Shown piece by piece: positions 27,940 to 32,717 of a stretch of 64,000 bases of DNA. The notes beneath the pieces are model-generated. The model saw nothing but the letters and a program-made list of their open reading frames with translations, was not told where the DNA came from and made no database searches. Positions within the stretch are counted from its first letter, which is position 1; each line of letters starts with the position of its first letter. The DNA lies in NCBI GenBank assembly GCA_964572225.1, contig CAZNFR010000006.1, positions 533 through 64,532 of the forward strand, given 5' to 3'. Source of the stretch: an uncultured Bacteroidaceae bacterium (GTDB lineage: Bacteria > Bacteroidota > Bacteroidia > Bacteroidales > GCA-2748055). Made by a program: the position numbers and the translations under genes.

Positions 27940-28023
27940 GCCCAGATGGCGGAATTGGTAGACGCGCTAGTTTCAGGGACTAGTGTACGCAAGTACGTGC
28001 AGGTTCGAGTCCTGTTCTGGGCA
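27940..28023 (+). tRNA. tRNA-Leu (anticodon CAG), class II with a long variable arm
   Basis: Acceptor GCCCAGA / TCTGGGC plus discriminator A. Anticodon arm CTAGT-TTCAGGG-ACTAG. Variable arm GTAC-GCAA-GTAC. T-loop TTCGAGT. CCA is not encoded. Confidence 0.9.
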
Positions 28024-28135
28024 CTTTCCCTCCCCAAATGTCGATATCAGTGTTAATCTAATTTTAACCAGGAATTCGGAATTGTAATTCATTTTAGACT
28101 TATCTTTGCTTCAGGATTACATGGATTTCAATTTA

Positions 28136-28461: not shown

Positions 28462-28547
28462 GCCCAGGTGGCGGAATTGGTAGACGCGCTAGGTTGAGGG
28501 CCTAGTGGCCGTTTTAGGCCGTGCTGGTTCGATTCCAGTCCTGGGCA
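28462..28547 (+). tRNA. tRNA-Leu (anticodon GAG), class II
   Basis: Acceptor GCCCAGG / CCTGGGC plus A. Anticodon arm CTAGG-TTGAGGG-CCTAG. Long variable arm GGCC-GTTTTA-GGCC. T-loop TTCGATT. Followed by CTTTTTTATTT. Confidence 0.9.
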
Positions 28548-28556
28548 CTTTTTTAT

Positions 28557-29368: not shown

Positions 29369-30064
29369 TCATGAAAAACTTTCAATCTTCCCCATGTCTT
29401 TCCAGTCATCCGTATGAAGAAATAATCCTATCTTATGGCCCGTAGCTATCTTTAGAATTTCAGGCATTATGGGGAACACCTGCTGCCCGGGTAAGAGCTT
29501 AATAAATTGTTTTTCAACTATGTATATGGCACTGAATGCAATTTCTTCCATTCTCCCGTTTTTTCTTGAAAGGATTGTTTCTCCTGTATCCCTGTGTTTC
29601 CAGCCACAGAGCAATCTTTCTTCGTTCATCAAAAGATATCTGCTGGTTTCTCTGTATTTAACGGCCAGGGTGGCAATGTATTTATTCTGAATATGATGGG
29701 CCCATAATTCATTCAGGTTTAATCCTGTAAGAATATCAACATTATGAACGAGAATGGGACCCTCATCGAAAACAGATTCTGCTTTTTTCAATCCGCCACC
29801 GGTATCGAGCAGTAATTCGCTTTCATCGGATATTTGTATATCCAGTGTGGGAAATTCGCACCTTTTCAGGTAATCCACAACCTGATAAGCAAGGTGATGC
29901 ACATTAACAACTACTTTTGTAAACCCGTGGTTCGCAAGACTTCTGAGAACATAATAGATAAGTGGAAATCCATGGTATTCTAACAAAGCCTTGGGTTTGT
30001 TCTCCGTTAAGGGCCTCAACCGGGTCCCCAGTCCTGCTGCCATGATCATAGCCTGCTTTTTCAT
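29369..30064 (-). CDS. Sugar-1-phosphate nucleotidyltransferase, MurU-like
   Basis: N-terminal MIMAAGLGTRLRPLTENKPKALL (the GxGxRLxPLT nucleotidyltransferase signature). About 230 aa. Positioned directly downstream of an AmgK-like kinase gene, as in the amgK-murU salvage pair. Confidence 0.7.
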   Translation of the reverse strand: MKKQAMIMAAGLGTRLRPLTENKPKALLEYHGFPLIYYVLRSLANHGFTKVVVNVHHLAYQVVDYLKRCEFPTLDIQISDESELLLDTGGGLKKAESVFDEGPILVHNVDILTGLNLNELWAHHIQNKYIATLAVKYRETSRYLLMNEERLLCGWKHRDTGETILSRKNGRMEEIAFSAIYIVEKQFIKLLPGQQVFPIMPEILKIATGHKIGLFLHTDDWKDMGKIESFS

Positions 30065-30215: not shown

Positions 30216-31646
30216 TTAACTAATCAGATCCCTGTGCACCAGTTCTACTTCCACCTTATGGTTTTCTTTCAGATAAACGGCAAGATTTTCTGCAGCAAAA
30301 ACAGATCTGTGCCTTCCTCCTGTACAACCAAATGATACCTGTAAATGTTTATATTTATTGTCTTGATACGCGTTTATACTGCGATCAAGAATGCGGTAAA
30401 CGTCCTTGAGAAATGATTTCATTTCTGACCTTTCTTCGAAAAACCTTGCGATTTCCGGATCTTTTCCTGTAAATGACTTCCATTCCGGATATCTTCCGGG
30501 GTTATGGATCCCCCTGCAATCAAAAACAAACCCCCCTCCATTTCCACTGAGATCAGAAGGAATCCTTTTGCGGTAAGAAAAACTATTTATTCTTATTTTG
30601 AGATTTTCCGGCTTATCATCAAAGGTGTAATTCAATTCTTCTGAAGCGACCATCTTCAAAAACAATTTCGGTAACTCCTTAAGTCCGACAGGAATTTTAT
30701 TGTTGACCAAAAGCCATTCCAGGTTTTTCATGGCCCATGGAATACTCAACAAAAAAAGAGATTTGTTTTCAACCCAGCCTCTGAGTCCGTAAGTGCCCAG
30801 CGCCTGAAGTATCCTTATGAGAACAAAATCGTAATATCGCAAAAGGAATTGATCCCTGATCCCTGGCAAAACGATTTCCAGGCTTTGGAGGTAGTGATTC
30901 AGCAGTTCTTCTCTTTTTCTCGAGGGAAGAGCGGTTTTTGCTTCGAAAAGTAAGGAGGCTGGATCATACTGAAGAGCACCCTTCCTGCCACCCTGGAAAT
31001 CAATAAACCAGGGGGAACCCTGATAAATCATAATATTTCTGGATTGAAAATCCCGGTACATGAAAAAATCCCTTGGAGAATCCATTAGCCTTGCGGTCAG
31101 GGCTACGAAATCATCCTCCAGCTTCTGCTCGTCGAAATTAATGCCAGAAACCTTGAGAAAAAAGTATTTAAAATGGTTTAGGTCCCAAAGTACGGATTGG
31201 GCGTCAAATTCCTGTCTTGGAACACAAAACCTGTAGTCGATCTTGGAATGGGAGTGCACCTGGAATTGCACCAAATTTTCCAATGTGTTTCTGTAGAGAT
31301 CCCAGATATGCTGATTTTCATCGACAGGCCCGCCAGTAGCTTCCAGCTCCTGCTTCAGGCTTACATCACCGAGATCTTTCAGCAGGTAATATTCTTCCGA
31401 TGGATGAACTGCATATATTTCGGGTACCGGCAAACCTTCGGAAGTAAATGTTTTGCAAAAGGAAAGAAACGCCCGATTCTCGTTAATATAATCATTAAAA
31501 ACCCCGATGGCTGTAAGCTCACCCCCGGTCATCCTGAAGTATCGGCGATGAGAACCTGAAGGAGGAAGACTTTCGATGACTTCAGCATCGCGTCCGAATT
31601 TTCCCCTGAATAAAATATTGAGCTCATTTTTATGCATAGATTTCAC
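30216..31646 (-). CDS. Fusion protein: an AmgK-like (APH-fold) anomeric sugar kinase domain plus a RapZ-type C-terminal domain
   Basis: The N-terminal ~330 aa have the phosphotransferase-fold catalytic region YRDFQSRNIMIYQGSPWFIDFQGGRKGALQYDPASLL. The C-terminal ~140 aa (INSFSYRKRIPSD...GGGFVFDCRGIHNPGRY...TGKDPEIARFF...LQVSFGCTGGRHRSVFAAENLA) match the recalled E. coli RapZ C-domain motifs (SFGFKYGIP, VFDVRFLPNP, AIGCTGGKHRSV). The start is either GTG 31646 or, more likely, ATG 31637 (MHKNELN...). Confidence 0.75.
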   Translation of the reverse strand: MKSMHKNELNILFRGKFGRDAEVIESLPPSGSHRRYFRMTGGELTAIGVFNDYINENRAFLSFCKTFTSEGLPVPEIYAVHPSEEYYLLKDLGDVSLKQELEATGGPVDENQHIWDLYRNTLENLVQFQVHSHSKIDYRFCVPRQEFDAQSVLWDLNHFKYFFLKVSGINFDEQKLEDDFVALTARLMDSPRDFFMYRDFQSRNIMIYQGSPWFIDFQGGRKGALQYDPASLLFEAKTALPSRKREELLNHYLQSLEIVLPGIRDQFLLRYYDFVLIRILQALGTYGLRGWVENKSLFLLSIPWAMKNLEWLLVNNKIPVGLKELPKLFLKMVASEELNYTFDDKPENLKIRINSFSYRKRIPSDLSGNGGGFVFDCRGIHNPGRYPEWKSFTGKDPEIARFFEERSEMKSFLKDVYRILDRSINAYQDNKYKHLQVSFGCTGGRHRSVFAAENLAVYLKENHKVEVELVHRDLIS

Positions 31647-31786
31647 GACAATAGTTCGTTAAACTTTTAGAAAATGGTATTTTGAAAAACCGTAAAACGT
31701 TGATTATTAATATTATATCTATTATTTACCGAGCTTTTTAAACTGTTGATAATGAGCGATATAATAAAGTTTAACGAACTATTGTC
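31647..31786. repeat. Perfect 21-bp inverted repeat flanking a 98-nt AT-rich spacer
   Basis: GACAATAGTTCGTTAAACTTT at 31647-31667 and its exact reverse complement AAAGTTTAACGAACTATTGTC at 31766-31786. The proximal arm abuts the start region of the kinase/RapZ-C gene. Confidence 0.85.
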
Positions 31787-32029
31787 ACGAATATTCGGCA
31801 TTTTAAAAGAGGGTTTTTAGTTCCTTATGAATTTCCCTGGGAATACCATGATCTTTGTTCCCTTCACTTCTTAATATTTTTGATGATGCTTTATATCCAT
31901 ACACTTATATTACGGTCGAAATTGATTAATCCATGTTCCTATAATCGGACCTGTCCCTAAAATCTGAACCAGTAAGAATCCTTTTAGTAATATAGGCTAA
32001 TCCCGGGATCTGGTCTATGGGTGTTACCG

Positions 32030-32037
32030 GCAAAATT
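32030..32037 (-). promoter_or_regulatory. Possible -7 box (TAATTTTG on the minus strand) that would drive a long leader into the kinase/RapZ-C gene
   Basis: This is the only TAnnTTTG match I could find on the minus strand between 31647 and the next gene. It is speculative. Confidence 0.25.
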
Positions 32038-32176
32038 AAAAAATTAATGTCTTATAAACAGGAAATAAATATTTTCCTGCTATTTTCGATCCCTGTGAAG
32101 AATGCTGGTTTGAAGGACATTCACTTGCAGCATCAAGATATTTTTTTATTATATTGGCAACCAAATCCACTCCTGA

Positions 32177-32632
32177 ATGAGAATACAGTTTTTTGAATTT
32201 AAAGACCTGAATATTGTTGAAATTGCTGTATTGGAAGCCGAAGAAAGGTTTATTCCTTTTACTGAAAAATCCAGGTTCCTTCCGGGTTCGGTTTTTAGTC
32301 TGATGCAAAATGCCTTTGAGATTAGCAATCCTGATTATAGTTATTATGATGAGGTGCCCTATCACGAAAACAATATCGTGAGTCTTAGAAACCGCCTGCA
32401 GGAACACCTTGTTAAGATAGGCACCATTGATCAGGCTGAATCGCTTGAATTGTTTGCCATGAAACAACTGGAAGGTATTGATTTCCTGAATGAGCTTAAA
32501 ACTTTCTACCCTAAATGGAAGATCTCCTGGGAGAATATCCGGGATCAGCTTAAGGAAGTGTACAAGGAAATGCTCGAACTCGTTGATCTTTGCATTGATG
32601 AGGATAAAATACTTTGGATCAAGGGATATTGA
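32177..32632 (+). CDS. Hypothetical acidic 151-aa protein (orphan)
   Basis: Codon pattern is typical of this genome: G-rich first positions and GAA/GAT/AAT/CTT usage. An in-frame TGA lies immediately upstream of the ATG, and a hairpin terminator follows. The longer antisense ORF at 32036..32686 has the F/K/I-rich composition of a shadow frame and would run through the terminator hairpin. Confidence 0.55.
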   Translation: MRIQFFEFKDLNIVEIAVLEAEERFIPFTEKSRFLPGSVFSLMQNAFEISNPDYSYYDEVPYHENNIVSLRNRLQEHLVKIGTIDQAESLELFAMKQLEGIDFLNELKTFYPKWKISWENIRDQLKEVYKEMLELVDLCIDEDKILWIKGY

Positions 32633-32646
32633 TAACTTGTTTGAAA

Positions 32647-32674
32647 AAAGGCCATCCGCATCCGGACAGCCTTT
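32647..32674. terminator. Bidirectional hairpin terminator between convergent genes
   Basis: AAAGGCCATCCG (32647-32658), loop CATC, CGGACAGCCTTT (32663-32674): 12-bp arms with a 2-nt internal mismatch. An A-run lies upstream and a T-rich stretch downstream. Confidence 0.5.
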
Positions 32675-32717
32675 ATTCAAAAACATGTGTGAAACTCACC
32701 AGTAATACCCAGGGGTA

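Follow-up and report, generated by a model that had tools for sequence, protein, structure and literature searches.

The 64,000-nt stretch analysed here (64 kb of contig CAZNFR010000006.1 from an uncultured Bacteroidaceae bacterium, hereafter the window) encodes an APH-type kinase fused to the RapZ C-terminal domain on the minus strand at 30216-31637. Pfam matches to PF01636 (2.2e-07) and PF22740 (3.9e-33) agreed with the annotation that had been given to this gene in a sequence-only reading of the window. The likely start codon is the ATG at 31637, with a GTG at 31646 as the alternative; the N-termini of homologues follow the pattern M-x4-L-x2-LF, which agrees with the ATG and not with the GTG. 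The publicly called version of the protein (P0001) is 473 aa long. Downstream of the kinase/RapZ-C gene lie a nucleotidyltransferase gene (29369-30064, minus strand) and then a PAPS-reductase gene, beyond which two tRNA-Leu genes (CAG, GAG) were found about 500 nt apart, at 27940-28024 and 28462-28548. The pair of kinase and nucleotidyltransferase resembles an AmgK/MurU-type sugar kinase and uridylyltransferase. About 8,000 homologues at E <= 1e-30 show that the kinase/RapZ-C fusion is very common, which suggests that the RapZ-C fold may here serve as a sugar-phosphate-binding module and not as an sRNA binder. Exact-protein look-ups with the kinase in its two start variants, with P0001, with the 151-aa gene described below and with the nucleotidyltransferase returned no second assembly of the locus.

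On the other side of the kinase/RapZ-C gene, a divergent gene of 151 aa without Pfam match is located at 32177-32632 on the plus strand. The length of this protein and its divergent synteny with the kinase gene are kept in the window and in two relatives (L014, 5149-5604; L045, 2300-2755). The minus-strand ORF of 216 aa that overlaps it (32036-32686) is probably not a real gene. The intergenic DNA up to 32176 contains only short ORFs, none with a domain match, in line with the earlier statement that it holds no credible ORF. Within this DNA, a 21-nt arm GACAATAGTTCGTTAAACTTT at 31647-31667 recurs after a spacer of 98 nt, at 31766-31786, as an exact reverse complement, so the perfect inverted repeat was indeed present where it had been described, with the proximal arm abutting the GTG (31646-31644) and lying 9 nt from the ATG (31637-31635). 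The repeat can be extended to 26 nt with two mismatches (31642-31667 / 31766-31791, 92%). Among inverted repeats with arms up to 1.6 kb apart, the 31647-31667 / 31766-31786 pair was by far the best in the window, and a local GC minimum of 26% coincided with the inverted-repeat unit.

The junctions of this unit were re-examined across its copies, and the conserved terminus was found to start at CAATAG. The outer GA/TC of the 21-nt arms is thus part of a target-site duplication, and the true terminal inverted repeat is 19 nt long. The left terminal repeat CAATAGTTCGTTAAACTTT (31649-31667, plus strand) and the right one (31766-31784, minus strand), an exact reverse complement at 19/19 positions, enclose an AT-rich interior of 98 nt (31668-31765) and delimit a unit of 136 bp (31649-31784, with no strand assigned). 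The sequence-only reading had seen no clear target-site duplication and had mentioned a MITE-like insertion only as an alternative. We found the hexamer TCACGA on the plus strand directly at both ends of the unit, at 31643-31648 on the gene-proximal side (TCGTGA on the gene strand, including the candidate GTG start) and at 31785-31790 on the distal side, which overturns the former statement and bears out the latter. With the ATG at 31637 as the start codon, the insertion lies between 5 nt (duplication copy) and 11 nt (terminus) upstream of the gene, and the GTG falls inside the duplication. The sole ORF inside the unit is 44 aa long and has no Pfam match. When the 404-aa transposase described below was compared with the window by tblastn, there was no match in the 64 kb, indicating that the unit is non-autonomous here. 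The window holds a single copy of it.

We then compared the locus with its relatives. In L014, the closest relative available, the kinase (P0002) is 80% identical and the locus is fully syntenic, and its 151-aa and kinase genes are separated by a spacer of 396 nt, versus 530 nt in the window. At the corresponding point L014 reads ...TTCTCGTGAAAT... with a single TCGTGA, and no inverted repeat was found in its spacer. When positions 31649-31790, covering the unit and a single duplication copy, were removed from the window in silico, the remaining sequence aligned with L014 straight through the junction. The empty site comes from one close relative only, L014, where the non-coding flank upstream of the junction has an identity of just about 50%. 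A more distant orthologous locus (L045, 56% identity) keeps the two genes in divergent order, 245 nt apart, with no inverted repeat between them. A presence/absence polymorphism is therefore seen at the orthologous site, with the unit in the window and without it in L014.

About 390 nt of non-coding DNA separate the unit from the 151-aa gene, and the gene-adjacent part of it is conserved. The block at 32020-32176 (minus strand) is 80% identical to L014 5605-5762 over 158 nt, and the remaining leader is unalignable. This block holds a candidate -7 promoter box, TAATTTTG, which is the sole minus-strand TAnnTTTG box of the spacer; the sequence-only reading had recognized it correctly and had placed it one base off, at 32037-32030 instead of 32038-32031. 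A transcript that begins at this box would carry the entire element within its leader. The block probably serves both divergent genes as a promoter or operator, with a small RNA as the less likely reading.

To place the unit among related sequences, we searched for its ends elsewhere. In a scan with one genome per species, the exact 21-mer gave 13 matches, spread over about ten different genomes of Bacteroidales, including Marinilabiliaceae JC017, Prolixibacteraceae, Salinivirgaceae, Rikenellaceae and Marinilabilia. The copies were dispersed within genomes, on at least three scaffolds in Marinilabiliaceae JC017 and on two contigs in Salinivirgaceae. Several of the matches had a second, slightly diverged inverted arm exactly 119 nt away from start to start, as in the window, and a metagenome scan with the two-arm pattern yielded eight more miniature copies of 126-139 bp. 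At least 15 other miniature copies, from about ten Bacteroidales genomes and from metagenomes, share these ends. Eleven of 15 miniature copies have a perfect direct repeat of 5-6 bp just outside the termini and four have none, while permuting the flanks among the 15 copies gave a mean of 0.86 duplications and a maximum of 6. The duplicated sequences differ from site to site, being TTATGA, CGGTGA, TCAAT, TCTTA and TCTTA at other 136-bp copies and TATTCA, GAGAAG, TAAAT and TGGTT among the metagenome copies found with the two-arm pattern. Such site-specific flanking duplications in 11 of 15 copies are a signature of transposition.

The interiors of the miniature copies were related to different degrees. 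The whole unit of the window could be aligned, at 76-78% identity, with copies in L005, L028, L030 and L033, and the ungapped identity of its interior to those of L003, L013, L005, L028, L030 and L033 was 46-69%, compared with a shuffle null of 0.34 +/- 0.04. L005, L030 and L033 have interiors with a mutual identity of 98-100%, each at a site and with flanks of its own, indicating recent mobility. The interiors of L002/L006 and L007 showed an identity of 0.33-0.40 to the others, which is at the shuffle level (null 0.34). Ten copies are nevertheless exactly 136 bp long (L002, L003, L005, L006, L007, L013, L028, L030, L033 and the window unit at 31649-31784), which hints that the element may be under a length constraint. 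Sequences of other lengths with the same terminus were also observed, of 159 bp (L009, 3205-3363) and 278 bp (L012, 5047-5324), and a copy of the terminus in L004 (6206 onward) continues into unrelated, hairpin-rich sequence and has no partner arm nearby. All 15 miniature copies are intergenic and their neighbours are unrelated: they lie upstream of genes, just downstream of genes, or between convergent genes, and no neighbour gene family recurred among the 15. These varied contexts argue against a gene-specific regulatory role.

Full-length elements with the same termini were identified in L010, L015, L016, L034 and L039-42. They are 1351-1362 bp long, enclose a DDE transposase gene and end in CAATAGTTCGTTA..., as does the miniature element; copies on long contigs carry CAATAGT[T/C]CGTTA at both ends. 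The 19-nt left terminal repeat of the window unit recurs without change in two of them, as the left end of the L039 insertion sequence and as the end nearer to the transposase in L010. The duplications at the full-length elements, taken from long-contig copies only, are TTAA (L015), TAATAGG (L016), ATTAAA (L034) and TCAATA (L039-L042), that is, 4, 7, 6 and 6 bp, so that the duplication length across the family is 4-7 bp. At full-length copies on short metagenome contigs the flanking duplications were mostly absent, probably because repeat-collapsed assemblies yield chimeric flanks. In L039, a Y1 (IS200/IS605-type) transposase gene (1935-2378) lies directly beside the full-length insertion sequence, forming a small mobile-element cluster.

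The 1353-bp unit of L010 contains one long frame for the DDE transposase, with one in-frame stop in this copy. When intact, the transposase is 404 aa long, matches PF01609 and shows the Y-2-R-3-E-6-K motif in full. Among NCBIfam models, IS701_3 fits it best (about 1e-33); its top family profile, NF049999, gave 114-117 bits where the curated cut-off is 170, and the transposase is below the curated NCBIfam cut-off for every named family. More than 3,700 homologous proteins were retrieved at E < 1e-20; the contigs that carry them are mostly about 1.4 kb long, which is what a multi-copy repeat that breaks assemblies would give. Its relatives on plasmids (up to 44% identity) are annotated merely as 'transposase', and a search of solved structures with the transposase gave no match. 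Between the interior of the unit and the ends of the insertion sequences, blastn found only short, weak matches, for example TTGATAAT-type motifs. Beyond the termini, a derivation of the unit from one specific parent is not supported.

The unit is small and non-coding, has terminal inverted repeats and copy-specific duplications, and shares its ends with an autonomous element, as MITEs do. Taken together with the empty site in a relative, these observations lead us to propose, at a probability of about 0.93, that the inverted repeat represents the ends of a 136-bp MITE (31649-31784) whose family is moved in trans by the 404-aa DDE transposase. The transposase of the 1351-1362-bp insertion sequences would recognise the shared ends and mobilise the miniature element, a step that we infer from the common termini. 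A staggered cut would be made at the target TCGTGA (gene strand), 5 nt upstream of the kinase/RapZ-C ATG, and its repair would leave the hexamer duplicated on either side of the unit. The perfect arms and the perfect duplication suggest that the insertion at the kinase locus is recent. Transcription from the box at about 32031-32038 would then produce a long leader hairpin with a 3' arm that reaches to 11 nt from the ATG and includes the GTG, and this hairpin is predicted to hinder translation initiation as a by-product of the insertion.

The possible consequence for the kinase gene was assessed by RNA folding. The predicted leader fold is a long hairpin with -43.6 kcal/mol over 171 nt (z = -6.4), a stability that follows automatically from the perfect inverted repeat. 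Opening the ribosome-binding region around the ATG, from -18 to +10, is predicted to take 21.4 kcal/mol when the unit is present and 6.4 kcal/mol when it is excised, and this higher opening cost makes a negative effect on translation plausible. That a stem beside the start codon could hinder initiation, as the sequence-only reading had supposed, therefore holds as a physical prediction, while the idea of a designed regulator gives way to a by-product of insertion: it is plausible from these models that the unit hinders kinase/RapZ-C translation as a side effect of the transposon. A link between the hairpin effect and the RapZ-C domain is not supported. We also considered that the MITE, once inserted, was kept and co-opted as a post-transcriptional control element of the kinase/RapZ-C gene, itself intact and widely conserved, which could take the form of an RNase III-type processing or stability hairpin, a translational brake, or a structured-RNA ligand of RapZ-C; we regard such co-option as very unlikely.

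The idea proposed from the sequence at the outset is that the leader hairpin evolved in cis to gate translation of the kinase/RapZ-C gene, whose product may bind it through its RapZ-C domain. The very stable predicted fold, the initiation region occluded in silico and the RapZ C-terminal domain of the encoded protein would all fit such a hairpin. However, neither orthologous locus examined (L014 and L045) has the repeat, and the same arms occur in other genomes in many unrelated intergenic contexts, beside unrelated genes, at the 3' ends of genes and between convergent ones; on these two findings the hairpin idea fails refuting conditions that the sequence-only reading had itself named. Moreover, the arms form the ends of an insertion sequence that encodes a transposase, a target-site duplication flanks the unit, and the fold stability is no more than the automatic outcome of the repeat. 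Searches of the window against Rfam, run both with gathering thresholds and with permissive E-values, gave nothing beyond two tRNAs and a chance-level match to MIR812 (27 bits versus 80). Overall, an evolved regulatory hairpin is highly improbable.

Another arrangement with inverted repeats near a gene start is the inverton, in which the arms would be recombinase sites and the 98-bp segment would flip to switch a promoter, as in Bacteroides phase variation. Inverted repeats of about 20 bp around a short AT-rich segment by a gene start resemble such a switch, and the GTTCGT in the arm recalls GTWCGT, the core of the Bacteroides fragilis Mpi sites. Against this, the copy-specific direct-repeat duplications are the signature of transposition and not of inversion, and the same ends delimit a DDE-transposase insertion sequence. 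Further, no recombinase gene is present among the neighbouring genes, no TAnnTTTG box with up to one mismatch reads from the segment toward the kinase gene, and both orientations were seen at no locus, the window locus being represented by a single assembly. An inverton is thus extremely improbable here. The chance of a fortuitous palindrome, or of an operator pair for a DNA-binding regulator of the operon, is close to nil, since only the symmetry of the sequence speaks for it, while none of 100 dinucleotide-preserving shuffles contained two matches to the 21-mer with up to three mismatches (mean 0.01) and the motif recurs at unrelated loci of many genomes in a conserved 136-bp architecture.

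Two further candidates for the unit were rejected. An outward promoter within it was discarded, as no TAnnTTTG with up to one mismatch was present on the gene strand. An integron attC site has the consensus RYYYAAC on the 5' side and GTTRRRY on the 3' side, in an imperfect palindrome with extrahelical bases. The GTTAAAC of the arm fits GTTRRRY, but on reading the sequence, GTTAAAC/GTTTAAC stand at the inner arm ends in reversed order and the stem is perfect.

The MITE reading means that a striking hairpin at a start codon is mobile DNA, which averts a false claim of a regulatory RNA or of RapZ autoregulation. Bacteroidota mostly initiate translation without Shine-Dalgarno pairing, and the insertion offers a natural test of the effect of strong 5' structure on initiation in this phylum. 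The MITE family and its parent insertion sequence are widespread and apparently undescribed in environmental Bacteroidales: a limited literature search found no published account of a MITE family with CAATAGTTCGTTAAACTTT ends, and the parent, abundant as it is, is annotated as plain 'transposase' and has features between the definitions of IS701 and IS1634.

The parent insertion sequence resembles IS701 in its single DDE transposase ORF (PF01609), its best profiles (IS701), its size of 1.35 kb, its terminal inverted repeats and a short duplication near half a helical turn. IS701 has been described as an 'emerging family' related to IS4, in which the Y is usually missing, the repeats are exactly 4 bp and the elements measure 1400-1550 bp (PMC2266710). 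The parent differs in that its profile scores stay below the curated cut-off (114-117 bits versus 170), its YREK motif is complete, its duplications are mostly 5-6 bp (4-7 bp) and not exactly 4 bp, and its length of 1351-1362 bp is slightly shorter. IS1634 elements produce AT-rich target duplications of 5-6 bp and are 1500-2000 bp long (PMC2266710); the parent is similar to them in its 5-6-bp duplications, whereas it is shorter and its profile match is very weak (22.8 bits versus a cut-off of 100). With a sub-threshold profile, a complete YREK motif, mostly 5-6-bp duplications and relatives labelled 'transposase', its family placement on sequence grounds is uncertain.

The systems closest to the miniature element are the MITEs derived from insertion sequences, such as MITEAba12 of Acinetobacter baumannii (PMC6382973) and the MITEs of Porphyromonas gingivalis (PMC4596501). 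Like these, the element falls within about 100-300 bp, is non-coding, AT-rich and intergenic, belongs to a multi-copy family, forms a hairpin when transcribed, shares its terminal repeats with an autonomous insertion sequence and is flanked by target-site duplications. Unlike them, it has another parent transposase, the terminal sequence CAATAGTTCGTTAAACTTT and a duplication of 5-6 bp, and the hosts of its family are marine and sediment-type Bacteroidales (Marinilabiliaceae, Prolixibacteraceae, Salinivirgaceae and others).
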